This document shows positions 7,933 through 60,516 of a DNA stretch of 64,000 nt, in pieces; the stretch's first letter is position 1; the number at the start of each line of letters is the position of its first letter. The notes beneath the pieces are model-generated. The model was not told the DNA's origin. It saw only the letters and a list, made by a program, of their open reading frames with translations, and ran no database searches. Position numbers and translations under genes: made by a program. Location: NCBI GenBank assembly GCA_038237165.1, contig JBBRYZ010000003.1, forward strand, positions 2,898-66,897. Reading direction: 5' to 3'. Origin of the DNA: Bacteroidales bacterium. Its GTDB lineage: Bacteria; Bacteroidota; Bacteroidia; Bacteroidales; UBA4417.

Positions 7933-10824
7933 TTAATGCGCTGCCAGCCAGTTATCTCCTGTATTCATCTCCACCTCCACCGGCACATCGAGAGGTAAAG
8001 CATTGCGCATCAAATCACCGACAACCTGTTTTACCTGATCCACTTCGGGTTTAAATACATCAAAAACAAGTTCGTCATGAACCTGCATGGTCATGCGGCT
8101 TTTTAATCCACGTTTCCGTATTTCGTTGTAAATATTGATCATGGCAATTTTGATCATATCAGCAGCGGAACCTTGAATAGGAGCATTGATAGCATTACGT
8201 TCGGCAAAACCGCGCATTACGCCATTCGCTGAATTAATATCGCGTATAATACGGCGTCGGCCCTTCAGCGTTTCCACATATCCTTTTTCACGGGCGGAAG
8301 CCATAGTGCTATCCATATATTTTTTAATCCCAGGGAATGTGGCAAAATAAGTATCGATAATTTCTGCTGCTTCCTTTCGGGGAATTCCTAAATTCTCGCT
8401 CAGCCCGAAAGCTGAAATGCCGTACACAATTCCAAAATTCACTGATTTCGCATTACGCCTCATATCGCGGTCCACCTCCCCGAGGCCAACTTTATAAATA
8501 TTGGCTGCTGTGGCAGTATGGATATCAAGTCCCTGGCGGAAAGCTTCTTTCATAGCTTCGTCACCACTCATGGATGCAATGATGCGAAGTTCAATCTGCG
8601 AATAGTCGGCCGAAAGCAAGGTATAATCTTCGTTTCGGGGAACAAATGCTTTACGGATTTCACGCCCGCGCTCTGTGCGAATGGGTATATTTTGAAGGTT
8701 GGGATTGGTGGAACTCAATCGGCCGGTAGCAGCCACCGCCTGGTTATAGCTGGTGTGAATTCGTCCTGTAACCGGATTTACAAGCAACGGCAAAGCATCC
8801 ACATAGGTTGATTTCAGTTTACTAAGACCCCGGAAATCAAGAATCAACTGAACTATAGGATTTTTGTGAATCAGTTTCTGAAGCACATCTTCACCGGTCT
8901 GGTATTGTTTGGTAGCCGTCTTTTTAGGCTTATCATCAATTTTAAGCCTGTCGAAAAGTATTTCTCCAAGCTGCTTGGGTGAAGCAATATTAAAATCGAC
9001 GCCCGCAAGTTGCCAAATTTCTTCCCGTACTTTAATAATTTCGTGGTGAAGCTCTTTCGAGAAATCGTTCAATGCCTTCGAGTCAAGTTTAACACCTGCA
9101 GCCTCCATTCCTGCAAGCACGGGAACCAATGGCATTTCAATTTCATTAAAGATTTTAAGTGTTTCTGTATCTATTAATTTAGGTTCAAGAATATTTCGCA
9201 GTTGCAGGGTTACATCCGCATCTTCGGCTGCATATTCCTTAATCTCGTCGATGGGAACCGTGCGCATGGTAGTTTGTCCTTTCCCCTTTTTACCGATCAG
9301 TGTTTCAATGCTTACCGGCGAATAATTCAGGTATGTTTGAGCCAGTATATCCATGTTGTGCCTCATATCAGGCTCAATCAGGTAATGAGCAAGCATAGTA
9401 TCGAATGTAGTGCCTGCAATTTCAATACCATAATTTCCGAGCACGGCCATATCGAATTTCATATTTTGTGCGGTTTTGCCTATGTTCGGGTTACTGAATA
9501 CGGGTTTAAACCTGGCAACCAATGCCTTTGCCTCAACCTGGTTTTCCGGAACGGGCACATACCATGCTTTGCCCGGCTGTGTGGCAAACGATATACCAAC
9601 CAGTTCGGCGGTTATGGTATCAAGACCTGTGGTTTCGGTATCAAAGCAAAAGGACTCTGATGTTTCCAATTCAAGAAGGAGCTCCTTTAGACTGGTTTCG
9701 TCGCTTGCAGCGCGATATTCGTGAGGCGTATCATTAATGGTTTTATGGCTGCCTTCAACAGTATCGAAAGGCACTTCAGCAATACTGAACAGATCACCTT
9801 GTCCGCTCGGAGGAGCGGGTTTGGAAGCTGGAGTTTTAATTGAAGTTGCAGTCTGAATTCCACCGGGATTTAATGATAAATCGGTAAATACACGTTGTGC
9901 GAAAGTCCGGAATTCCAATTCATCAAGCAATGCTTTAAGCCTTTCCACATCAGGCGGATCGAGGTGCAAATGAGTTTCATTAAATTCGATGGGGACATCG
10001 AGGATAATAGTTGCCAGTTGTTTGGAAATAATCGCAGACTCTCGGCCATTCTCCACTTTGTTCCGGAGGGTATCGTTTTTAATATATTTTGCATTTTCGA
10101 GCAAACCTTCCACCGAACCGTATTCAGCAATCAGTTTTCGAGCCGTTACTTCACCTACTCCCGGAATACCGGGAATATTATCTGCCGCATCGCCCATCAT
10201 TCCAAGGAAATCGATTACCTGTAAAGGATTTGTGATACCGAATTTTTCACAGATTTCGGGAACACCCATTATCACAGGCTTTTCTCCTGCTTTGGCGGGT
10301 TTGTACATAAATATATTCTCACTCACCAGTTGCCCGAAATCTTTATCCGGAGTAACCATATACACCTGGAATCCAGCTTGCTCAGCTTCTTTTGCAAGGG
10401 TTCCGATAACATCATCAGCCTCGTAGCCATCCACATAAAGTGTAGGAATATTAAATGCCTGTATAAGTTCCTTTATGTAAGGAATTGATGCTGCCAGATC
10501 TTCGGGCATTGCCTGTCGGTTAGCTTTATATTGCACAAAATCAGTGTGGCGCGCTGTTGGCGCATGAGTGTCGAATGCCACACCCATATGCGAGGGTTTT
10601 TCGTTTTTTAACAGCTCGTACAATGTATTGGCAAACCCCATGATAGCTGAGGTATTCAGCCCTTTGGAATTGTAGCGCGGGGTACGCTGCATAGCAAAAA
10701 ATGCACGGTAAATCAATGCCATGCCATCTAACAGAAAAAGTTTTTCCACGGTGGTTATTTTGAAAGTGTAAAGATACGGATTTGATAGAATTTCGGGTGT
10801 CGGATAACGGATTTGCGATATCAA
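7933..10824 (-). CDS. polA: DNA polymerase I
   Basis: 963-aa ORF. 5'-nuclease LFLLDGMALIYRAFFA, 3'-5' exonuclease FDTETTGLD, polymerase motifs DYSQIELR and QVHDELVF. The real start may be the GTG at 10749 (VEKLFLLDG), which would give 938 aa. Confidence 0.95.
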   Translation of the reverse strand: MISQIRYPTPEILSNPYLYTFKITTVEKLFLLDGMALIYRAFFAMQRTPRYNSKGLNTSAIMGFANTLYELLKNEKPSHMGVAFDTHAPTARHTDFVQYKANRQAMPEDLAASIPYIKELIQAFNIPTLYVDGYEADDVIGTLAKEAEQAGFQVYMVTPDKDFGQLVSENIFMYKPAKAGEKPVIMGVPEICEKFGITNPLQVIDFLGMMGDAADNIPGIPGVGEVTARKLIAEYGSVEGLLENAKYIKNDTLRNKVENGRESAIISKQLATIILDVPIEFNETHLHLDPPDVERLKALLDELEFRTFAQRVFTDLSLNPGGIQTATSIKTPASKPAPPSGQGDLFSIAEVPFDTVEGSHKTINDTPHEYRAASDETSLKELLLELETSESFCFDTETTGLDTITAELVGISFATQPGKAWYVPVPENQVEAKALVARFKPVFSNPNIGKTAQNMKFDMAVLGNYGIEIAGTTFDTMLAHYLIEPDMRHNMDILAQTYLNYSPVSIETLIGKKGKGQTTMRTVPIDEIKEYAAEDADVTLQLRNILEPKLIDTETLKIFNEIEMPLVPVLAGMEAAGVKLDSKALNDFSKELHHEIIKVREEIWQLAGVDFNIASPKQLGEILFDRLKIDDKPKKTATKQYQTGEDVLQKLIHKNPIVQLILDFRGLSKLKSTYVDALPLLVNPVTGRIHTSYNQAVAATGRLSSTNPNLQNIPIRTERGREIRKAFVPRNEDYTLLSADYSQIELRIIASMSGDEAMKEAFRQGLDIHTATAANIYKVGLGEVDRDMRRNAKSVNFGIVYGISAFGLSENLGIPRKEAAEIIDTYFATFPGIKKYMDSTMASAREKGYVETLKGRRRIIRDINSANGVMRGFAERNAINAPIQGSAADMIKIAMINIYNEIRKRGLKSRMTMQVHDELVFDVFKPEVDQVKQVVGDLMRNALPLDVPVEVEMNTGDNWLAAH

Positions 10825-10946
10825 AACCCTATCTCGTTTTGAAACTTGTATATAATCTTAAATAAAATTGTACTCTCTGAGCAAGCTCTTCAAACTTTTC
10901 AAACTCTTCGAACCATAAATCTTACAACTTATCCCTTACTCCTAAC

Positions 10947-11417
10947 TCACAGTGTTATCTTCCTGTTTATGTACCACGAATAATCGGTTGCAATAATCTT
11001 GTAATCGGTTTTGAAAAGCTCTGACGAAATAATAAAATCAGCCGTTGATCGGTTACAGGCAACCGGAATATTGTACAGAACCGAAATCCGTTCGAGTGCT
11101 TTTACATCCACTTCATGAGGATGAGGCTCCATGGGGTCCCAGAAAAATATAAGTACATCAATTTTACCTTCGGCAATCATGGCCCCCATTTGCTGATCGC
11201 CGCCAAAAGGACCGGATTTTAATCTTTTAATACTCACACCTTTACTTGAGCCTTTCTCCATGCGGGATGCAAGCGCCTCAGAAACCATGCGGCCAGTTGT
11301 ACCTGTTGATACTATTTTATGATCCTTGAGAATCTCCCAATTCCATTGTACCCATTCTACCAGGTCTTTTTTACGATTATCATGTGCCACGAGGGCTATA
11401 TTTTTTGGCTTTATCAT
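10947..11417 (-). CDS. mgsA: methylglyoxal synthase
   Basis: 156 aa. IALVAHDNRKKDL...STGTTG...GPFGGDQQMGAMI...LIFFWDP. Confidence 0.93.
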   Translation of the reverse strand: MIKPKNIALVAHDNRKKDLVEWVQWNWEILKDHKIVSTGTTGRMVSEALASRMEKGSSKGVSIKRLKSGPFGGDQQMGAMIAEGKIDVLIFFWDPMEPHPHEVDVKALERISVLYNIPVACNRSTADFIISSELFKTDYKIIATDYSWYINRKITL

Positions 11418-17781: not shown

Positions 17782-17849
17782 AAATCTCACTCTCTCTTAT
17801 TTTTCACTTTTTGTCACCCTGAGTGTAATCGAAGGGCACTTTTCATTCC

Positions 17850-18848
17850 TCACTTTTCACTCCTAACTGCAGTAAGTATTGTTTGGCCCACAGCCATAAG
17901 TGTAGGTTTACTTATGCCAGCCATATTATCACTTTTGGTATGCCAGTTTCTGTAAAATCCTGATTGTGTTGATTGATCGTGTTGGATAATATCAATGGTC
18001 GGAATCTTCCGCAATTGGTTGATATACACATGATCGTCGGTAATCGCATTGGTTCGTTCAGATGAAAAATAATCGCTGTATCCAATAGAAGCGCCAATGT
18101 TCCATACCATCTGAGCTATATCAGGAGCATAATACATGGTAGTGCCTTCCATGGTAAAAACCGCATTTTCGGCGCCAACCATATCGAGCAATATTCCATA
18201 CCGGGCAGTATAACCAGGAACATGCGGATTATGTGACCAATATTGCGAGCCCAGCGCCCAATCGTCAGTCCCCGTATAACCGGCATCCTGAGGCGCGCCA
18301 TAGTCTTCGGCATCTAACAGCAACAAATCAACACCAATTGTTGAAGGCGATATCCTTAACTGACGGGCAATTTCAAGTAGAATACCAACTCCGCTGGCAC
18401 CGTCATTTGCTCCGTCAATCGGCGTGCGGTGCATTGTTGTGTCAGGATCGTTATCAGCATAAGGACGTGAATCCCAATGTGAAGTAAGCAAAACCCGGTT
18501 TGTGCTTCTCGGATTAAATGATGCAATAATATTCTTACCGTTCAACGTTGTTCCGTTGTAGGCTTTGGCAGTAAAGTTCTGCACAACGACATTCGGCGTG
18601 TATTTTTTTAGCGTTGCTTCAAGCCATGCGGCGCATTTTTCATGTGCCTTGCTGTTATTAACCCTTGGGCCGAACTTTACCTGTTCGTTTACAAAATAAT
18701 AAGCCGTATCCGCATTAAATTCAGCAGCTTTAAAGGATTTCACCGGCTCCGAAGTTGAAGATTCATCAGTAGTTTGAGAAGATTTTTGTTTGCACGAACT
18801 AAATGCTGCAATTAAAATAACCGAAACCAAGGCAAGAGAATATCGCAT
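17850..18848 (-). CDS. glutaminyl-peptide cyclotransferase (M28-fold, lipoprotein type)
   Basis: 332 aa. Lipobox AAFSSC; HWDSRP, DGANDGASGVGILLEIAR, LLDAEDYG, LGSQYWS, ILLDMVG, DDH. Closely resembles my recollection of the Porphyromonas gingivalis QC. Confidence 0.75.
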   Translation of the reverse strand: MRYSLALVSVILIAAFSSCKQKSSQTTDESSTSEPVKSFKAAEFNADTAYYFVNEQVKFGPRVNNSKAHEKCAAWLEATLKKYTPNVVVQNFTAKAYNGTTLNGKNIIASFNPRSTNRVLLTSHWDSRPYADNDPDTTMHRTPIDGANDGASGVGILLEIARQLRISPSTIGVDLLLLDAEDYGAPQDAGYTGTDDWALGSQYWSHNPHVPGYTARYGILLDMVGAENAVFTMEGTTMYYAPDIAQMVWNIGASIGYSDYFSSERTNAITDDHVYINQLRKIPTIDIIQHDQSTQSGFYRNWHTKSDNMAGISKPTLMAVGQTILTAVRSEK

Positions 18849-23284: not shown

Positions 23285-23695
23285 TTATTTGCCTTGCTGA
23301 TAGCTTGACTCTGCGATGTAAACTGTGAGTCTCTGTTTATTTACCGATACAATTTTCCATGTTTGGATTGATGTTCCGCCCCAATATCCAACCTTAATAT
23401 TAACCAATGAACCATCCTGATTCCAGGTGCCTTCGTAATCAGCAGTTGTAACCGGAGGTGTGCCGCACCATCCACTATTTTGGCGTTCGACAAGTTTATT
23501 ACCTGACTTAAATGTAATCCCATACTGGTTTTCTACCAGATAATTAGCCCGGGTATAAATTACAACAGTATCAGTATATTGAGGATTTATCCAACTTCCA
23601 ATCAGTTCAGTATTACTATCCTGAATAAAAGTATTCTCTTTCCGGCACGAAAACAATGCAAGTGAAATAAATGAGACTAAAAAGACTATTCTCAT
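23285..23695 (-). CDS. hypothetical lipoprotein
   Basis: 136 aa. Lipobox LALFSC. No family recognised. Confidence 0.45.
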   Translation of the reverse strand: MRIVFLVSFISLALFSCRKENTFIQDSNTELIGSWINPQYTDTVVIYTRANYLVENQYGITFKSGNKLVERQNSGWCGTPPVTTADYEGTWNQDGSLVNIKVGYWGGTSIQTWKIVSVNKQRLTVYIAESSYQQGK

Positions 23696-23797
23696 AAAAG
23701 GCTTTTATTAGTAAATTAATTGAATTACAAGAATCATTCCGGATTTCAAAATCTAAGTCCCAAAATCCGCTTTCCGCATTCGCAAATTCGAAATCCC

Positions 23798-26166: not shown

Positions 26167-29100
26167 ATGAAGTCTTCTTTACTTTTCAAAGGCAGGGTTG
26201 CCTTACTTGCCCTGATCCTGGTTACTTTCACCCAAAATGTGAAATCGCAGGAACCCGTGGTTCAAACTGCTGTACATTTCGACGTTTCGGCTCCATTACG
26301 TGATATGAAGGTAAAAAAAACTGCATTCTGGAAAAAATGGATGACAGAAACCGAAAAGGAAATCCCGAATAAGTTTCATATTAAGCCGGTGATACATCCT
26401 GAATATATGAACCAAACTGACGGAGCAATGCAAAATGCTTCCAAAAAGGAGGCTCAGGGTGCAATCATAAATCCGGTTACAAATTTCGACGGGATAAATA
26501 ATTCCAAAAACAAAAGGGGGAGGTTTACACCTCCCGATCCTGCCGGCGATGTAGGACCGAATCATTATGTACAGGCTGTTAACTGTATGCTACAAATATT
26601 CAGTAAAACCGGCACTTCAATATACGGACCGGTAGAAACATCAACCATTTGGAGTGGTTTTGACGGCATTTGGAATAATGATTTAGATAACAAAAATCAT
26701 GTTCATAACGATGGAGACGCAATTATAATGTATGATGAAAATGCCGACCGCTGGATTATAAGCCAGTTTGCTGTGGATTGCGGCACTTTTCCCAATTACA
26801 CTGAATATGAACTGGTAGCCGTTTCGCAGACAGCTGACCCAACTGGCGCATATTATCGATATGCTTTTAAGTTCGATCATATGCCCGATTATCCAAAAAT
26901 GGGTGTGTGGAGCGATGGATACTACCTGGCAGTAAACCGCTTCAATACCAACAGTTCCTCGTCACCTGCCATTGGAGCAGGTATGGCCGTATTGGAACGC
27001 GATAAAATGTTGGCTGGAGATCCTCTGGCCAGAATGATCTATGCAAAAACTGAAACCTTAGGAGGTAGTGGTTCAGGTCTGGGTTCCGACTGTTTCAGCA
27101 TGCTTCCGGGCGATTGCGACGGCACATTTGCCCCAGCAGGCACACCCAATTATTTCACTTATATAAATGATGATTCATGGGGCGGAAAAGATGAGCTCCG
27201 GATATGGTCGTTAAAACCCGACTGGACTGCAGGCACAGCTATCGCTTCTTTTGTTACGGCTCTGCCGGTTGCCGCGTTTGCAACATACTCTACTTATGCA
27301 ATTTCCCAAAAAGATGTAACGCTTAAACTTGATGATCTCAGCGACAGGCTGATGCATCGCCTTCAATACCGTAATATGGGGACCTACGAAAGCATGGTTA
27401 CCTGTCATACGGTGAATTCAGGCAGTAATATTGCCGGTGTTCGTTGGTACGAGATGCGTAAAAGCGGCGCATCCTGGACACTATACCAGCAAGGCACATA
27501 TGCTTTTGCCGACAGCAAATCGCGCTGGCTTGGCAGCATAGCCATGAACGGAAACGGTGACATTGCATTAGGCTATACACTTTCGGGCACAAATGATTTT
27601 CCTTCCATTTACATTACAGGCCGCAAAGCCACTGATGCTCCCGGAACAATGACTGTTGCTGAAAGTCCTATTGTTGTGGGTGCCGCGTCAATGACCGGGG
27701 CCGACCGCTGGGGTGATTATGCTATGATGAGCGTTGACCCTGTTGACAATAAAACATTCTGGCATACCAACCAATATGTTGGCACTTACGGCGGCAGTTA
27801 TCCCTGGTCCACCCGCATCGCTTCATTTGTATTTTCTAATACCCCTATAGTGGCAACACTGCCTGCAACAAATATTACAGGTACTTCATCTACTTTTAAT
27901 GGCACAGTGAACCCGAACGGACTGGCTACAGATTATTATTTTAAATGGGGGACCTCCGCATCTTATGGAAATGTTACTCCAACTTTATCAGCAGGAACCG
28001 TTTCGACAGTTGTACCTGTTTATGCAGATATTGCAGGACTTACACCGGGTACGCTTTATCATTACAGCGTGGTAGCTTCCAACAGTGATGGGACAGCTAT
28101 TGGAGCAGACCTAACCATTATTGGTGGCCAGGCTGAAGTAACTACTACCGGCATTACAAATATCACTGCCACAACAGCTACAGGTGGTGGTAATGTAACA
28201 GCTAATGGTGGAAGCACAGTTACGCGTGGCGTTTGCTGGAGCATTTCGGCCAATCCTACCATTACAGATGCAATTACTACCGATGGAACAGGCATAGGAA
28301 TTTATACAAGTTCAATTACGGTTCTGCTTCCCGCAACAATTTATCATGTTCGTGCTTACGTTACTAATGCTGCCGGTACAGCTTACGGAAGCGATGTGAC
28401 ATTTACTTCAGGTTCTTTAAATACTCCCGCTGCAACGGATGCTACAACCGTTACATCAAATGGCTTTACAGCCAATTGGAGCGCTGTTGACGGAGCCAAT
28501 TCCTACGACCTGGATGTTTCCTTGTATCCAACCTTCAGCATTGGCGGGGGAAATTCGACACTTACGGAGGGCTTCAACAGTGGCTTTACTGCACCGGCAG
28601 GCTGGACATTTACAAATATAGGCGGCACATATACTTCGGCAGGAAATTTCGGTGTAGCTTCACCTTCACTTAAAATGGATGCAACAGGCGATGCTGTTGA
28701 AACTCCAATGCTTGCCTCAGCTGCGACACAGCTAAGTTTCTGGTGTAAAGGACAGTCCGTCAATACATCAAGTTCCCTGCTGATTGAAGGATTCAACGGG
28801 AGTTCATGGGTTACCATCGACACATATAGTCCGCTTCCGATCGTAGCCACAACTAAAACCTACAATTCATCATCCACACCTGCATTACATGCAAATATGG
28901 TTAAATTCAGGCTCTCCTATTCAAAAAGCACAGGCAACCTGGCACTTGATGATGTAAGTATAATTTCGGGAGGAACAGTTCCTTCATTTGTTGGCGGGTA
29001 CGAAAGCCTGTCGGTTAGTGGGATTTCACAATCTGTTACAGGCTTGGCTGCTTCTGTTCCTTATTATTACAGGGTAAGAGCTAAAAGTGGATCGAATTCG

Positions 29101-34218: not shown

Positions 34219-35214
34219 TTAGTTAATTGAGCTACTCTGTTTAGATTTATCAATCCAAAGCAATTTTAGCTTCCATTTGTTAATAGTAAAATATTTTATT
34301 GAATCGGCATACTTATCAATATCAACCCCTTGTGAAGAAAATGCCTGATTTGAATCTTCTTCATCTGTTTCGGCAATAATAACAGCCGGGTTATACGTGT
34401 TAATCACATCTTTGTCATTAAAACAATCTTTCCAAACCGGGAAGGAAATTGCTTTGCTTTTCCAGCTCAATGAAGGAGCCCATGCGCCAATAATCGGACT
34501 ATTTTGAAAGTTATATTTACCCAAATAAGTATTGACCTCCGAAATAACAAATGTTCTTCTTCCATAAGATGAGCCATAATCAATGCCATTTTTGATTCCA
34601 AGAGAAAATAAGATTAAAAAGGATAACGCTTTAATACTATAAGCCATCGGATTTTTCGTTTTTATACTTATTAATTCGTACAACACCAGCGATATTAATA
34701 ACCCCATTGCAAAATATAAACTTAACAAATACCTGGAGGGCAGATATGTCATCGACAACTTATGCATTTCCAATAGTATCCAACATGTTAATCCTATAAA
34801 AAGAAATCTGAACCGAGTAGATTCAGTAAAGAAAGTGTAAATCAGACCCGAGAGAAATAATATATAAAATGAAATTGTGTACCATTTTAAATAGTTATTA
34901 TAAAAGATAAAATTCAGAATAAAATTTAAATGGTGTGACAAATTCTGTATGCTGACAAATCTGCCAGTTGCTGTATTAGCAATTACATAATCATAAAATT
35001 CCTTATTGGGCAAATACCAGGCAAAGAAATAGATTGCCAGATAAATTAACAGGAAAAGAGAAGTATAGAATAACTGCTTAAGCAATAGTTTTTTATCAGT
35101 TGTCTTTATCAGCATGAAAACCAGTATTGATAAAGGAAGAATAAGTATGCTGTAAATGAACTGAATTTTTAGAAAATATACGATTGATATGAAAGTAGCC
35201 GATAAAAAACTGGA
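34219..35214 (-). pseudogene. 5'-truncated GT-C-type (ArnT/PMT-like) membrane glycosyltransferase gene
   Basis: Polytopic membrane ORF with a soluble C-terminal domain. The first 18 codons of the track ORF (MHGLKILIARIANPRQRG) are read from the REP element, so the native N-terminus is missing. Confidence 0.45.
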
Positions 35215-35272
35215 CCCCCGCTGGCGCGGATTTGCAATCCGTGCTATTAAGATTTTCAATCCGTGCAATTAG
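35215..35272 (+). repeat. REP copy 1
   Basis: cccccgctggcgcggatttgcaatccgtgctattaagattttcaatccgtgcaattag. Hairpin gcgcggatt/aatccgtgc with one G:T pair. Confidence 0.8.
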
Positions 35273-35510: not shown

Positions 35511-35571
35511 CCCCCCCCGCTGGCGCGGATTTGCAATCCGTGCTATTAAGATTTTCAATCCGTGCAATTAG
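35511..35571 (+). repeat. REP copy 2
   Basis: Same sequence as copy 1, 299 bp downstream, immediately 3' of the intact RAYT gene. Confidence 0.8.
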
Positions 35572-38955: not shown

Positions 38956-38980
38956 TTGAGAGTTAGAAAGCTGTTTTGGA

Positions 38981-39112
38981 GGGAGATTGAGGAACTGAGG
39001 GACTAAGGGACTGAGGGAGTGAGGGACTGAGGGAGTGAGAGACTGAGAGACTGAGAGACTGAGGAACTTAAAGACTGAGGGACTGAGAGACTGAGTGAGA
39101 TAGGGAGATGGG
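38981..39112 (+). repeat. degenerate tandem array, 8-nt period (GAGRGACT), about 16 units
   Basis: gaggaact gagggact aagggact gagggagt gagggact gagggagt gagagact x3 ... It fills the whole spacer between the PorZ-like stop and the recO start. Confidence 0.9.
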
Positions 39113-39114
39113 AG

Positions 39115-45693: not shown

Positions 45694-45800
45694 AGCATAC
45701 GATTAGAATGAAAACCCGGTTTTGAAAGCCGAAAGATAGGAATAATATTTTAACCGTTTCAGGAGAAGCTTGAAAACCGGAAATGGTTTTTGACAATATG

Positions 45801-45912
45801 TCTCTTCGTCACTCAGTCTCCAATTTCCAAATCACTCAATCTCTCAGTCTCTCTGTCCCCATTTCTCCCAGTCCCCATGTCTCCCAGTCTCCCCATCCCC
45901 ACTCTCCCCGTC
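45801..45912 (-). repeat. degenerate tandem array, 8-nt period (ACTGRGAG on the minus strand), 14 units, ending at the MATE stop codon
   Basis: Plus strand: tctcttcg tcactcag ... ctctcagt ctctctgt ccccattt ctcccagt ccccatgt ctcccagt ctccccat ccccactc tccccgtc. Same unit as 38981-39112 but in the opposite orientation. Confidence 0.9.
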
Positions 45913-52590: not shown

Positions 52591-52704
52591 TTGCTTGTTG
52601 CGGGAATGTTTGACAGGTGAAGACTAAATCATAAAAAATCGAACAGAAGAACATTTGAACATGAGAACATTTGAAATATCAACATGAAACACTGAAACCA
52701 GAAA

Positions 52705-52776
52705 CCCTCAATCCCCTCAATCCCATCAATTCCCCCAATCCTATCAATCTCCTCAATCCCTTCAATCCCCTCAATC
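52705..52776 (-). repeat. degenerate tandem array, 9-nt period (GATTGAGGG on the minus strand), 8 units, ending at the amidase stop codon
   Basis: Plus strand: ccctcaatc ccctcaatc ccatcaatt cccccaatc ctatcaatc tcctcaatc ccttcaatc ccctcaatc. Confidence 0.9.
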
Positions 52777-56023: not shown

Positions 56024-57112
56024 ATGAAAAAAACGCTACTCTTATTCCTGCTTGTTACAATTCTTGTAATAACGAAAGCACAAATTCCTGTAAATTATTA
56101 TGATGCAGCTTCAGGAAAAACTGGCGCAGAACTTAAAACAGCATTGTATAATATTATTAAAGGGCATACTGTGAAAAGTTATGATTATATATGGACAGCT
56201 TTCCAAACAACTGATAAAAAGTCAAATGGAAAGGTTTGGGACATGTACTCCGACATTCCCGGCGGTACCCCACCTTATGAATATACGATGATCTCAAACC
56301 AATGTGGAAATTATTCCGGCGAAGCATCCTGCTACAACCGCGAGCATAGTTTTCCTAAGAGTTGGTTTGGGGATGTTGCACCTATGAATTGCGATATATT
56401 TCATATTTACGCTACCGATGGATATGTTAATGGAAAAAGAAGTAATTATCCTTACGGGCCGGTAAGTTCACCTTCCTGGACATCATTGAATGGGTCAAAA
56501 CTCGGACCTTGCTCAGCACCTGGATATACGGGAACAGCGTTCGAACCTATTAATGAATACAAAGGCGACCTTGCCCGTACATATTTTTATATGGTGACAG
56601 GTTACGAAGATGTAGTCGCTTCATGGAACTCAAACCCAGAAGCACAACCTACACTTGACGGGACAAAATTCCCATGTTTCAACACATGGATACTCAACGT
56701 TTTGCTTGCATGGAACGCAGCTGATCCGGTCAGCCCTAAGGAAATTGCGCGTAATAATGCTGTTTATGCCATTCAGCATAATCGCAATCCTTACATTGAT
56801 CATCCTGAGTATGTGAACAGTGTTTGGGGCGCCTATGTTGGCATTACTGATACACCTGCACAAATAGCACTTCAGGTATATCCAAACCCGGTTTCAGGAA
56901 GTTGTACTGTAGTTTTACCTTCAGATTACAATCAACAAAATAATGGTTTTGTTGTTTATTCGTCAACAGGCACGCCGGTTTTTGCACCTATGAGTGTGAG
57001 TGGCGACAAGGCAATTCTGAACCTCGAGAGTTTGCCTGCCGGCTTTTACCTGGTACGACTTGCTCTTAATAATTACCATACCATATACCAGGCAAGGATT
57101 ATTAAGAATTAG
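56024..57112 (+). CDS. extracellular endonuclease I family nuclease with T9SS C-terminal sorting domain
   Basis: 362 aa. Signal ..TKA|QI; NREHSFPKSWFG, IFHIYATDGYVNGKRSNYPYG, EYKGDLARTYFYM, NRNPYIDHPE. CTD LQVYPNPVSG...GFYLVRL. Confidence 0.85.
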   Translation: MKKTLLLFLLVTILVITKAQIPVNYYDAASGKTGAELKTALYNIIKGHTVKSYDYIWTAFQTTDKKSNGKVWDMYSDIPGGTPPYEYTMISNQCGNYSGEASCYNREHSFPKSWFGDVAPMNCDIFHIYATDGYVNGKRSNYPYGPVSSPSWTSLNGSKLGPCSAPGYTGTAFEPINEYKGDLARTYFYMVTGYEDVVASWNSNPEAQPTLDGTKFPCFNTWILNVLLAWNAADPVSPKEIARNNAVYAIQHNRNPYIDHPEYVNSVWGAYVGITDTPAQIALQVYPNPVSGSCTVVLPSDYNQQNNGFVVYSSTGTPVFAPMSVSGDKAILNLESLPAGFYLVRLALNNYHTIYQARIIKN

Positions 57113-57284
57113 ATAACGGATTTCGCGTTATAAGCACTTTCCAGCATGCTAATTATTAAACATTTTATGTTTAGTGTTAATCATTAAAAAATGAATAACA
57201 TATAACACTTAATGAAAAATGTTAAAGTTGTGAAAAACAAACCTTTAAAAGTGAAAAACGAAAAGTGAAAATAGAAAATAGTAT

Positions 57285-57560
57285 TTAATGCGAATCAAGG
57301 GTTGGAACGAAATAGCCACGAAGTGGCTAAACATCAATATCCGCCTTAGGCGGAGCAACCAACGGTTATTGATTAATCTAGCGGGATCAGCCACGAAGTG
57401 GTTGAACAGAATTATGCATAATTCAACCCCTTCGGGGCTGACGCTAACTTGCCATTGTCAACCGTGGATTACTCCGCCTAAGGCGGATATTTAAGTGAAG
57501 CCCTTTCAGGGCTTTGCGGAAATATAGAGAAAAATTTAACCCTTGATTGGCATGATTAAC
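57285..57560. repeat. about 270-bp compound imperfect palindrome made of two inverted three-hairpin modules
   Basis: Centre gaattatg|cataattc at 57416/57417. Outer arms aatcaagggtt/aacccttgatt. A 20-nt block aatatccgccttaggcggag is present in both arms as a perfect inverted repeat. Local hairpins agccac-gaa-gtggct and cagccac-gaa-gtggttg (left arm) and caacccc-ttc-ggggctg and aagccc-tttc-agggctt (right arm). Confidence 0.8.
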
Positions 57561-57674
57561 AAATGCATGACTATTGTATGACCATTATATGACAACTCCT
57601 CCCCCTCGAACCAATCATTTTAACCTTGTCCAACTTTTAACGCGAACCACTGAACCCTTTTAACCCTTTTCCCC

Positions 57675-58121
57675 TTGCAAACCATACGAATCACAAAAGA
57701 ATTTAAATTTGAAATGGCTCACGCCCTTAAAGGATACGACGGGCTGTGCCGGAATATTCACGGCCATTCCTACGAACTGCTGGTAACGATTGCCGGAATT
57801 CCAATTGCAGACAGCACTTCAACTAAACTGGGAATGGTTATGGATTTCGGCGACCTGAAGAAAATCGTACGAAAAAATATTATAGATGAATTCGATCATG
57901 CCCTGGTGCTTAGCCGAGAATCAGCTAATGATTTTAAACCCGATGTTGAAATGTTCGGGCGTACCATTCTCGTTAACTATCAACCTACCAGCGAAAATAT
58001 GCTGATCGATTTTGTAGCGCGCCTCAAATCCCAACTGCCTGTAAATGTAAAGCTTCATCATTTGCTGCTCCGCGAAACTGTAACCTCGTATGCCGAATGG
58101 TTTGCGGAGGATAATGTATAA
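57675..58121 (+). CDS. queD: 6-carboxy-5,6,7,8-tetrahydropterin synthase
   Basis: 148 aa. TKEFKFEMAHAL...CRNIHGHSYEL. TTG start as given by the ORF track. Confidence 0.9.
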   Translation: MQTIRITKEFKFEMAHALKGYDGLCRNIHGHSYELLVTIAGIPIADSTSTKLGMVMDFGDLKKIVRKNIIDEFDHALVLSRESANDFKPDVEMFGRTILVNYQPTSENMLIDFVARLKSQLPVNVKLHHLLLRETVTSYAEWFAEDNV

Positions 58122-58143
58122 AATAATTTCGGATGTCGGATTG

Positions 58144-58293
58144 TAGAAGGGAACGCGGATAACGCGGAAAGAACGGATGAACGCGGATTTCGGATTGCGA
58201 ATATCGGATGTAAGATTGTGGATTTCAAATGTCGGATATCGTATTTTAGAAGGGAATGCGGATAACGCGGAAAGAACGGATGAACGCGGATTT
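58144..58293 (+). repeat. two copies of a 47-nt direct repeat (one mismatch) 103 bp apart, inside a CGGAT/GCGAAT word-rich spacer
   Basis: tagaagggaaYgcggataacgcggaaagaacggatgaacgcggattt at 58144-58190 and 58247-58293. Confidence 0.85.
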
Positions 58294-58312
58294 ATAGTTT
58301 TGTAAATCCACT

Positions 58313-58368
58313 ACTCATTATTCGCTATTCATTATTCATTGTTCATTGTTCATTGTTCATTATTCCTG
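58313..58368 (-). repeat. degenerate tandem array, 7-nt period (AATGAAC on the minus strand), 8 units
   Basis: Plus strand: actcatt attcgct attcatt attcatt gttcatt gttcatt gttcatt attcctg. Confidence 0.9.
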
Positions 58369-58431
58369 CTCTCCAGTCTCAGACACCCTCCGGGTGTACA
58401 GTCACTTTTCACTTTTTACTCTTCACTTTTT

Positions 58432-59049
58432 TCAGTCTCCCGAATCCAGCTTCATCTTTATTCTCGAAGCAATAATATCTATTGCAACCTTATTTTCGCC
58501 TCCTTGCGGCACAATAATATCGGCATTGCGTTTAGTAGGTTCGATAAACTGAATGTGCATAGGTTTCACCCATCGGCTATAATGCTCGAGTACCTGCATG
58601 GCATCACGGCCGCGCTCAACGGTATCGCGCCGGATAATGCGCATCAGGCGATCGTCGCTTTCGGCATCAACAAATATTTTTATATCCAGGCGCTTGGTCA
58701 GTTTGGGATCACTGTAAATCAAAATACCTTCAATAATAATTACCTGCCGTGGTTCTATCCTCACAGTTTCTTTTAATCTGGCACAGGTAATATAGGAATA
58801 CACAGGCATTTCGATGCTTTCACCACGACGCAACGCATCAATATGATCGATTAAAAGACTCCATTCAAAGGAATTGGGATGGTCGAAGTTTATTTTGAGT
58901 TTTTCTTCGGGAGAAAGATGTCCGTTATCCCAATAATAGGCATCCTGTGGAATTACAGCAACCGAATTCTTAGGCAAACGTTTGATGATTTCGCGGACAA
59001 CGGTAGTTTTTCCGCAGCCCGAGCCACCGGCAATTCCTATAATAAGCAT
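58432..59049 (-). CDS. udk: uridine kinase
   Basis: 205 aa. P-loop IIGIAGGSGCGKTTV; FDHPNSFE. Confidence 0.95.
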   Translation of the reverse strand: MLIIGIAGGSGCGKTTVVREIIKRLPKNSVAVIPQDAYYWDNGHLSPEEKLKINFDHPNSFEWSLLIDHIDALRRGESIEMPVYSYITCARLKETVRIEPRQVIIIEGILIYSDPKLTKRLDIKIFVDAESDDRLMRIIRRDTVERGRDAMQVLEHYSRWVKPMHIQFIEPTKRNADIIVPQGGENKVAIDIIASRIKMKLDSGD

Positions 59050-59101
59050 AATAAGAGCAGGTTAAAAAATATTTTGAGGGAGAGTACCAAAATGTAAAAG
59101 T

Positions 59102-59128
59102 AAAAAAAGCCCCGGATTATCGGAGCTT
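59102..59128 (-). terminator. intrinsic terminator of the mmd operon
   Basis: On the minus strand: gctccg-ataatc-cggggc followed by T7, about 195 nt after the mmdB stop. Confidence 0.6.
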
Positions 59129-59322
59129 TCTTTGTGATTTTGTGAATTTTTATTCTGTATAAAGCCTTACAGTGTTACAAAGTTACAGCGTTACAGGTCG
59201 CTGAGCGATGGTTGGTGAGCGAAGCCGAACCAAGCCGAAGCTCAGAGTTACAGTATTCCTCTCTTTACATCCTTATATCCTACTCCTTATAACTTATACC
59301 TTTCCTTACTTCTTATAACTTA

Positions 59323-60516
59323 TTAATACAGGAAACTGAGCAAAATACCCGCTGCAACGGCGCTGCCAATAACTCCTGCTACATTGGGTCCCATAGCATG
59401 CATAAGCAGGTGGTTTGTACTATCATATTCCAATCCAACAACTTGCGATACCCTGGCACTTGCAGGAACGGCCGAAACACCGGCATTTCCAATAAGCGGA
59501 TTTATTTTGTTCCCTTCTTTCAGAAAAAGGTTGAATATCTTTACAAACATCACACCTCCAAAAGTTGCAACTGCAAACGATAACGCACCAAGCACAAAAA
59601 TACCTACCGATTTTGGAGTTAAAAAAGTTGTTGCCTGTGTAGATGCTCCCACTGTAAGTCCAAGCAGAATTGTAACTATATCAATCAACGGACCTTTGGC
59701 AGTATCGGCCAGACGTTTGGTAACAGTGCTTTCTTTAAGCAGGTTGCCTAAGAAAAGCATACCCAGTAAAGGAATGGCAGCCGGAACTATGAAACAGGTG
59801 AACAACATCCCGATTACAGGAAAAACAATTTTTTCGCGTTTGGAAACAGAGCGCGGTGGTTTCATCCGGATCAACCGTTCCTTTTTGGTAGTTAGTAACC
59901 TCATGATTGGAGGTTGTATAACAGGTACAAGAGCCATATAAGAATATGCGGATACAGCAATGGCGCCAAGTAGTTCAGGAGCTAGCTTCGAAGTAAGGAA
60001 AATAGCCGTAGGTCCGTCGGCGCCACCAATAATACCTATTGCCCCTGCTTCGTTGGGCAAAAAACCCAGTGCAAGAGCGCCGGCATATGCTCCAAATATA
60101 CCTAATTGTGCCGCAGCCCCAACGAGCATTAATTTCGGATTTGAGATAAGTGCCGAAAAATCAGTCATGGCGCCAATACCCAGAAAAATTATAGGTGGAT
60201 AAATGCCATATCGTACCCCAAAATAAAGATAATTGAGTACACTTCCACTTTGGTATATTCCAATCTCCGGGTTTAGAGGATCGCCACTCAAAATATGATC
60301 AGCTCCCAGAAAGGGAATATTCCCAACCAGTATTCCAAAGCCAATCGGAACCAGTAACATTGGTTCAAATCCCTTTGCAATTGCCAGGTAAATAAATCCA
60401 ATCCCGATAAGTATCATAAATACATGCCCCACTGTAAAATTAGCGAAGGCAGTGTACTGAAAGAACTGGACTATGTGATCGGACAAAAATGTCCATAAAT
60501 TTCCTGAAGTTCCCAT
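59323..60516 (-). CDS. mmdB: sodium-translocating decarboxylase beta subunit (MmdB/OadB/GcdB family)
   Basis: 397 aa polytopic protein. GIIGGADGPTAIF, NLLKES, GNAGVSAVP. Confidence 0.9.
   Translation of the reverse strand: MGTSGNLWTFLSDHIVQFFQYTAFANFTVGHVFMILIGIGFIYLAIAKGFEPMLLVPIGFGILVGNIPFLGADHILSGDPLNPEIGIYQSGSVLNYLYFGVRYGIYPPIIFLGIGAMTDFSALISNPKLMLVGAAAQLGIFGAYAGALALGFLPNEAGAIGIIGGADGPTAIFLTSKLAPELLGAIAVSAYSYMALVPVIQPPIMRLLTTKKERLIRMKPPRSVSKREKIVFPVIGMLFTCFIVPAAIPLLGMLFLGNLLKESTVTKRLADTAKGPLIDIVTILLGLTVGASTQATTFLTPKSVGIFVLGALSFAVATFGGVMFVKIFNLFLKEGNKINPLIGNAGVSAVPASARVSQVVGLEYDSTNHLLMHAMGPNVAGVIGSAVAAGILLSFLY

Follow-up and report, generated by a model that had tools for sequence, protein, structure and literature searches.

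The genome of an uncultured Lentimicrobiaceae bacterium (Bacteroidales) carries intergenic tandem arrays of short words that almost lack C on one strand, and at both gene starts and gene stops this C-free strand runs 5′ to 3′ away from the nearest gene end. We examined the 4.22-Mb draft genome (276 contigs, 40.5 % G+C); the window, a stretch of 64,000 nt, covers positions 2898-66897 of its contig C3 (JBBRYZ010000003.1). For this window, the initial annotation had described C-poor word-repeat trailers beginning at the stop codons of eight genes. All eight are present, and a check against Pfam agrees with the gene names. The trailers are strongly C-poor on the sense strand in five cases (mgsA, MATE, omega-amidase, mmdB and udk) and weaker or interrupted in the remaining three (the M28 peptidase/glutaminyl cyclase, the LVIVD protein and queD). 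The trailers are a genuine feature of high statistical significance that is also seen in relatives, and they are probably a by-product of selection and not a new signal.

Orientation of the arrays at gene ends

Genes were called using a simple codon-usage open reading frame (ORF) caller, which gave 3059 genes genome-wide, and tandem arrays were collected from the whole genome by Tandem Repeats Finder (TRF). Of the 941 arrays obtained, 722 are intergenic; the periods are 7, 8 and 9 nt and their multiples, and units of 14-16 nt occur too. Among strongly skewed arrays, 217 have the C-free strand running away from the nearest gene end and 40 go against this rule. Within 20 nt of a stop codon the ratio is 104:7, and within 20 nt of a start codon, where it is the G-free strand that is sense, 36:2. 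By type of gap, the counts are 41:1 in convergent and 18:8 in divergent gaps, while in tandem gaps the arrays with sense G lie a median of 6 nt from the stop and those with sense C a median of 32 nt from the next start. Gaps containing both arms show the G-arm followed by the C-arm, on either strand, in 17 cases and the reverse order in none. Since the rule at starts mirrors the one at stops, the C-free strand points outward from the nearest gene end regardless of how the gene is transcribed, and the polarity goes with the gene borders rather than with transcription. The sense orientation that the initial annotation had noticed at stops therefore stands, but it is not confined to sense-strand trailers, as the starts and the divergent gaps demonstrate. 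Arrays with an absolute skew of at least 0.8 are also closer to genes, with a median distance of 10.5 nt from the gene end against 54 nt for unskewed arrays (p=6e-11). Only one qualifying array in the genome lies beside a tRNA gene.

The same bias is seen when the DNA past stop codons is surveyed directly. The first 60 nt contained at most three C and at least 12 G in 80 cases and the reversed composition in 12 (n=1500), and the first 40 nt were C-free and G-rich in 111 cases versus G-free and C-rich in 21 (p=6e-16). Runs of at least 60 nt lacking either C or G number 132, with 0-1 in shuffled sequences, and there are only two A-free and two T-free runs. Strongly periodic 100-nt windows (lag 5-16) make up 4.3 % of post-stop, 1.8 % of pre-start and 0.1 % of coding windows and none of the shuffled ones; of the periodic windows past stops, 47 have a positive and 8 a negative sense skew. 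Post-stop regions are thus skewed and periodic genome-wide and their orientations are far from equally frequent. The bias is very strong and, as the initial annotation had suggested, does call for selection or a strand-asymmetric mechanism. The mean post-stop GC skew is nevertheless only about +0.05, since few genes have a trailer: about 5 % genome-wide, compared with 8 of about 48 genes in the window, which is above average in this respect.

The bias is restricted to the arrays. When they were masked, post-stop GC skew fell to about zero (+0.009, -0.003, +0.015 and similar values), so ordinary trailers are not under pressure to be C-poor, and a general compositional constraint on post-stop DNA was rejected. 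The depletion of G before starts did remain after masking. The last 20 nt before starts consist of 40-43 % A and 9-11 % G, which is consistent with short leaders without Shine-Dalgarno sequences, and TAnnTTTG, the Bacteroidota -7 promoter motif, peaks 20-40 nt 5′ of the called ATG codons.

We also considered an artefact of ORF calling, in which stop-free reversed arrays would be swallowed by the 3′ ends of ORFs, and found only two short AT-rich cases. The few arrays that break the rule are for the most part short, have an in-frame stop close by or can be assigned to the start of the adjoining gene. Where TRF puts an array at 25-150 nt from a stop, degenerate C-poor words generally bridge the distance, the spacer having 12 % C and 29 % G.

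Regarding related genomes, we sampled 1.2 Mb of a complete genome of the same genus (G004). Among its arrays, the rule is followed 23:3 up to 20 nt from a gene end and the split beyond that distance is 16:19, and the first 40 nt past its stops are biased as well (16 vs 5). The repeat in a relative suggested by the initial annotation thus gave the same result. When arrays of the relatives are assigned simply to the nearest gene end they look unbiased, and the rule appears once they are split by distance.

Composition, turnover and described counterparts

The 108 post-stop arrays consist on average of 38 % A, 34 % G, 26 % T and 2 % C. The main word families are GGATTGANG (24), AGTGAA (19), AATAGTTAATGG (16), GTTTGAAGA (9) and GGGAGAC (6). 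In 45 of the 108 the array overlaps the stop codon itself, and stop usage is shifted: genes with arrays end in TAG in 50 cases (46 %), TGA in 33 (31 %) and TAA in 25 (23 %), compared with 457 (25 %), 289 (16 %) and 1080 (59 %), respectively, elsewhere (chi-square p=2e-12). For annotation, this means that arrays supply stops and shift their usage to TAG and TGA, change protein C-termini between close strains and can yield spurious small ORFs. Exact-protein look-ups for such strain variants returned no records.

The arrays turn over fast overall and a few are long-lived. Of 14 array-bearing loci, 3 also have a C-poor trailer in G004, versus 5 of 184 control loci (p=0.013). In the close relative L208 (97 % protein identity), rearrangements of whole units are found only in the regular part of the array beside the stop, and the degenerate distal part is identical. 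A more distant metagenome contig, L142 (about 81 % nucleotide identity), has arrays of the same word families in the same orientations at the amidase, MATE and PorZ-recO sites, but the number of units differs; the amidase array there has 11. The stop of the MATE gene is followed by a G-rich trailer in most (about 25) of 30 Lentimicrobiaceae genomes at 77-97 % identity, and no such trailer was found at the MATE orthologues of Prolixibacteraceae and Chitinophagales. At the amidase stop, most species of the genus (at least 8 species, 78-83 % protein identity) have G-rich words, which vary by species (GGGTTTAGGG, GGGATTTGGG and others), and more distant members have no G-rich words at this site. 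In the amidase orthologues, array words already form the final one to four codons together with the stop, as in ...GGAGTTGGGTTT TAG GGTTTAGG. In three same-genus orthologues (L008, L009 and L002) the words at the stop are the telomere-like GGGTTAGGG and GGGTTTAGGG, with the TAG within the word. A search for 70-nt C-free runs across the order revealed similar arrays, e.g. GGTTAAAGGGTTAAATGG, in other families, although the counts refer to overlapping positions dominated by AT-rich genomes and no distribution is readable from them.

The arrays belong to an already described class of polar intergenic repeats, found here in a new host lineage. The initial annotation knew of no matching class of elements; however, Rehm et al. 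2015 (PLoS One, PMC4692102) state the same polarity rule for G-rich heptamers, GGGAATC in Xanthomonas and GGGGA(C/T)T in Nostoc PCC 7120. Those repeats occur antisense within 50 bp upstream of an ORF or sense within 50 bp of a stop, are almost always nearer to the 5′ neighbouring ORF whatever its orientation and often overlap the stop; inverted convergent pairs occur as well (PMC4692102). As the phenomenon has been in the literature since 2015, its value as news is modest. The arrays in our genome resemble that class in their head-to-tail units of about 7 nt, in being mostly intergenic and rare in coding DNA, and in being G-rich on the sense strand at stops and on the antisense strand at starts within 20 nt. 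They differ in that the published consensus is essentially absent (GGGAATCGGGAATC has two one-mismatch matches in the whole genome), that units are of 7, 8, 9 and 14-16 nt, that the host is an uncultured Bacteroidales lineage, and that most arrays lack four G-tracts, the common trait being the lack of C and not runs of G. The vocabulary is wider here and mostly non-quadruplex.

A second counterpart are the TAACTGA repeats of marine Beggiatoaceae, cyanobacteria and five Bacteroidetes (MacGregor 2015, Front Microbiol, PMC4679880). That study argues that the forward repeat has stops in all frames and hence can overlap ORF ends by a few nucleotides only (PMC4679880). These repeats share with our arrays the abundance of intergenic heptamers, the strong orientation relative to ORFs and the whole-unit differences between close strains. 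Unlike our arrays, TAACTGA holds both C and G and lies mostly forward and directly upstream of starts; tandem copies of it were not found, with no match to TAACTGATAACTGA in the genome. More generally, long simple-sequence repeats of prokaryotes (Mrazek et al. 2007, cited in PMC4679880) are comparable. They and the cyanobacterial STRR heptamers are similar to the present arrays in their sporadic phylogeny, units of 5-11 nt, intergenic position and high copy number in few lineages. We know of no polarity rule stated for either of them. A literature search returned nothing newer on such repeats in Bacteroidota.

Possible causes of the polarity

We give roughly an even chance to the explanation that slippage-prone repeats persist at gene ends only when they are oriented so that translation is not harmed, the polarity being a by-product of this selection. 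The trailers are long simple-sequence repeats, with units of 7, 8 and 9 nt and multiples, and would be made and reshaped by replication slippage, of which their fast turnover is typical; the arrays would grow until they met constrained sequence and so come to abut gene ends or enter them by a few codons. Past a stop, the sense strand would have to be the C-free one, dense in TAA, TAG and TGA, and slippage over the ORF end, a frameshift or read-through would then alter the protein tail by a few residues. Before a start, the sense strand would have to be the G-free one, which offers no ATG, GTG or TTG and no purine-rich Shine-Dalgarno-like words. This would also fit the G-poor leaders of Bacteroidota, which are general in the present genome and in translation initiation of the phylum. 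Arrays in the opposite orientation would be purged by selection, and the C-free strand would always leave the gene end without any need for a dedicated function.

A what-if inversion of the arrays illustrates the cost that may act as the filter. The extension after read-through has a median of 5 codons as found and would have 24 if the arrays were inverted, and start triplets per leader array would rise from 0.22 to 7.1. The translational filter is supported by the position of the bias, which sits where arrays touch genes, as the near and far arrays of G004 illustrate. It would explain the restriction of the bias to arrays, its independence of gene orientation, the shifted stop usage and the recurrence of the pattern in distant phyla; that Xanthomonas and Nostoc obey the rule too (PMC4692102) agrees with a cause that lies in the universal genetic code. 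If true, it would mean that the genetic code, in which stops have no C and all starts have a G, shapes non-coding DNA, and that the polarity of fast-mutating sequence beside genes is predictable even in unrelated phyla.

Several points weigh against the translational filter. It does not account for the origin of the arrays and their abundance in these lineages, for the near-total absence of C on one strand, or for the bias that remains at a distance in this genome, where arrays follow the rule 49:20 at 21-100 nt and 28:11 beyond 100 nt from the gene end. Much of the DNA between such distant arrays and the gene is degenerate C-poor repeat. Stop triplets in the arrays are not locked to the frame of the gene (224/206/178 by frame), and arrays with stops in one frame only show no preference for frame 0 (13/11/8). 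In tandem gaps, intrinsic terminators were predicted after 10 % of genes with arrays and 23 % of genes without (p=0.007), a deficit which the filter alone does not predict; in convergent gaps the values are 32 % and 43 %. The long-lived MATE trailer could mean that arrays are kept for a function. Moreover, the gene borders rest on a crude self-made ORF caller.

Among the alternatives, we regard as unlikely that the architecture of an element or its generating mechanism sets the polarity. The arrays would descend from an element with a G-arm and a C-arm, like the stems of 23S rRNA intervening sequences (IVS) that enclose a 23S_rRNA_IVP gene, or from a polymerase extending outward from gene-proximal 3′ ends in a telomere-like manner, with later loss of the cargo or of one arm in most copies. 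The strict arm order of 17:0, independent of the orientation of the flanking genes, speaks for such an origin, as do the telomere-like GGGTTAGGG/GGGTTTAGGG words of the relatives and the surroundings of the IVP genes. The genome has 7-8 genes of this four-helix-bundle family (PF05635), and in six of seven cases the gene is flanked by a G-arm and a C-arm that share one word in inverted form, e.g. GGATTGATG ... CATCAATCC (chance 6e-7 at the genome-wide rate). On the other hand, 193 of the 224 gaps with strongly skewed arrays hold a single array and 207 hold one orientation only, and farther than 20 nt from gene ends the G004 arrays are oriented randomly, which a fixed architecture should forbid. 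A hairpin or dyad model failed too, as arms of the same gap without an IVP gene are no more complementary than random pairs (0.102 vs null 0.102). Repeat perfection (0.83/0.82/0.76 going from proximal to distal, p=0.16) has no significant gradient, so growth polarity of the arrays was likewise rejected.

In the IVP nesting, which is similar in layout to rRNA intervening sequences, a G-rich array comes first and a C-rich array downstream. Seen from the IVP gene that they enclose, these arrays point the 'wrong' way.

There is likewise a small chance that the arrays are selected border insulators of genes without hairpin terminators. The RNA leaving the gene would be C-free, rich in stops and invisible to Rho, and the RNA entering it would be G-free, untranslatable and naked and would be removed by Rho or RNases; the two-arm layout may then derive from IVS-like elements with four-helix-bundle genes. 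This reading is in line with the persistence of the MATE trailer, the halved frequency of terminators and the six of seven IVP genes between matching arms. Termination in Bacteroidota, with their unusual Rho, is still poorly understood, and arrays acting as insulators of transcription or translation would add a new layer of gene-boundary control in this phylum.

The ideas based on Rho alone, on G-quadruplexes (G4) and on back-up stops are weak or unsupported. Insulation by Rho, which we hold to be rather improbable, supposes that a transcript entering a gene, antisense or by read-in, carries a G-free, C-rich rut tract and is stopped by Rho, and that the outgoing transcript, being the C-free strand, is ignored by it. 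The geometry fits both gene ends, Rho is encoded (PF07497, Rho_RNA_bind, 121 bits in a 709-aa open frame), and canonical terminators are fewer in array trailers. The antisense RNA of the trailers, with 2 % G and tracts of 60-150 nt, is C-rich like a rut site and probably unstructured, and its length matches that of rut sites. However, 36-41 G-free arrays lie directly before starts, and a strong rut within an operon would cause polarity. Only 1 of 41 such arrays has a TAnnTTTG promoter motif upstream, so these arrays are mostly probably inside operons. In addition, most genes have no such tracts and most arrays are not conserved between species. The same polarity is found in Nostoc PCC 7120 (PMC4692102), and cyanobacteria lack Rho (PMC13289151); the incoming-rut idea thus cannot be the general cause. 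That the trailers keep Rho from loading onto the sense RNA, a role which the initial annotation had proposed, conflicts with those C-rich arrays before starts and with the rule in Nostoc.

It is also improbable that the G-rich sense RNA or non-template strand forms G-quadruplexes or R-loops that pause or terminate transcription or protect the 3′ end in place of hairpins. The depletion of predicted terminators after arrays would fit, the repeat consensus sequences of Rehm et al. form G4 in vitro (PMC4692102), and the MATE and amidase trailers have several runs of G3-4. Nevertheless, a motif of four G3 runs is present in only 12 of the 108 post-stop arrays (11 %) and a G2 motif in 40, and the commonest families (AGTGAA, GTTTGAAGA and AATAGTTAATGG) cannot form G4, so G4 was rejected as a unifying feature. 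The mirror rule at starts is left unaccounted for. Moreover, 15 of 18 predicted terminators lie beyond the array, so that transcription would pass through it. Finally, that trailers exist as back-up stops to catch read-through ribosomes, as the initial annotation had also considered, is very improbable: the next in-frame stop does come earlier with an array (median of 6 codons vs 10), but the stops are not frame-locked, 60-150 nt far exceeds the need, about 95 % of genes have no trailer and the start-side arrays would be unexplained.

Trailers of the window and other repeats

The coordinates of the trailers and of the other repeats are listed in Table 1.

Table 1. Repeat features of the window (window coordinates) and of other contigs of the draft (contig:position)
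Feature	Position	Strand	Description
mgsA trailer	10818-10946	-	129 nt; sense C 8 (6 %), G 32, A 45, T 44; degenerate GTAAG/GGAGTAAGG words, then GTTTGAAGA array (TRF 10882-10913)
M28 peptidase (glutaminyl-cyclase-like) trailer	17786-17868	-	AGTGAAAAG words overlapping last codons and stop
LVIVD-protein trailer (weaker case)	23676-23797	-	GCGGATTT/GCGAAT words; 122 nt, C 13, G 26
PorZ-recO spacer	38956-39114	-	159-nt gap filled by CTCAGTCC octamer array, sense C-rich
MATE transporter trailer	45793-45912	-	GGGGAGAC/TGGGAGAC octamers from the stop; 120 nt, C 9 (7.5 %), G 53
Omega-amidase (CN_hydrolase) trailer	52623-52776	-	C 6.5 %; eight GGGATTGAN nonamers, then GTTTCA words
queD (PTPS) trailer (weaker case)	58122-58307	+	CGGATT/GCGGA words; 186 nt, C 21, G 57
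udk trailer	58309-58431	-	AAGTGAA array 58402-58431 (C-free), GC hairpin, AATGAAC heptamers 58309-58365
mmdB (OAD_beta) trailer	59254-59322	-	TATAAGGAGTAGG words; 69 nt, C 0, G 20
Hairpin element, mmdB trailer	59200-59250	-	
Hairpin element variant, M28 trailer	~17805-17835		
AAAAGTGAAAAAAG array	57247-57278	+	sense strand, 134 nt past stop of the 56024-57112 gene
GATTTGCAATCCGTGCAATTAA arrays	35229-35271; 35528-35570		gap between the 34219-35115 and 35597-35956 genes
IVP loci	C136:5058-5424; C137:519-888; C37:12111-12504; C261:513-927; C57:15323-15695; C2:76006-76318		
CCTTCTCCTTGAAGAGAAGG/TGCCGAAGGCGGATGAGGTGA element	C2 ~10722-11170; C8 ~28170-28580		

The mgsA tract begins with the first base past the TGA stop and has 6 C in its first 100 nt on the sense (minus) strand; the span 10860-10946 given in the initial annotation falls inside it. 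In the M28 trailer, 13 C-free nt are followed by a small hairpin and further AAGTGAAAA words. The TRF array there (17837-17868) has a skew of -1.0 on the plus strand and overlaps the stop, and an intrinsic terminator (hairpin and T-run) is predicted 73-112 nt past the stop, after the trailer. The LVIVD and queD trailers have about 11 % C because their words contain CGGAT, and the nonamer part of the omega-amidase trailer (52705-52776) has no C. The spacer between PorZ and recO had been described as the only inverted case. Its sense strand is indeed C-rich, but it is no true exception, as the array (TRF 38988-39095, period 8; distance 19 nt to the PorZ stop, 32 nt to the recO start) adjoins recO at its start and obeys the rule for starts.

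On the 3′ side of the mmdB trailer there are CTGTAAC words and a CTTCGG...CGCTCAG core hairpin. A dispersed hairpin element with the core CTTCG(A/G)CTNCGCTCAG has 102 copies in the genome compared with 4 in a shuffle, and its stem bases co-vary (ACA/TGT, GCG/CGC, GTG/CAC). Some copies have an extra inner hairpin, TTCCGATAGCTATCGGAA. It lies within 60 nt of an array in 43 of the 102 copies, often embedded, and unlike the arrays it prefers the sense strand of the nearest gene (54 vs 27). The element matched no Rfam family. With Rfam 15, the whole window gave no covariance-model match at the gathering score, and 57100-59400 gave only chance-level hits (E 0.05-0.8).

Another dispersed element, of about 95 nt, has a hairpin CCTTCTCCTTGAAGAGAAGG followed by TGCCGAAGGCGGATGAGGTGA. 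It is found in tandem as well as at several loci and adjoins AGTGAA arrays.

Two further repeats were noticed in the window. The vocabulary of the AAAAGTGAAAAAAG array is that of the udk and M28 trailers. The other is a pair of identical 43-nt arrays, 300 nt apart, with the 22-nt unit GATTTGCAATCCGTGCAATTAA, which unlike the word trailers are unskewed.

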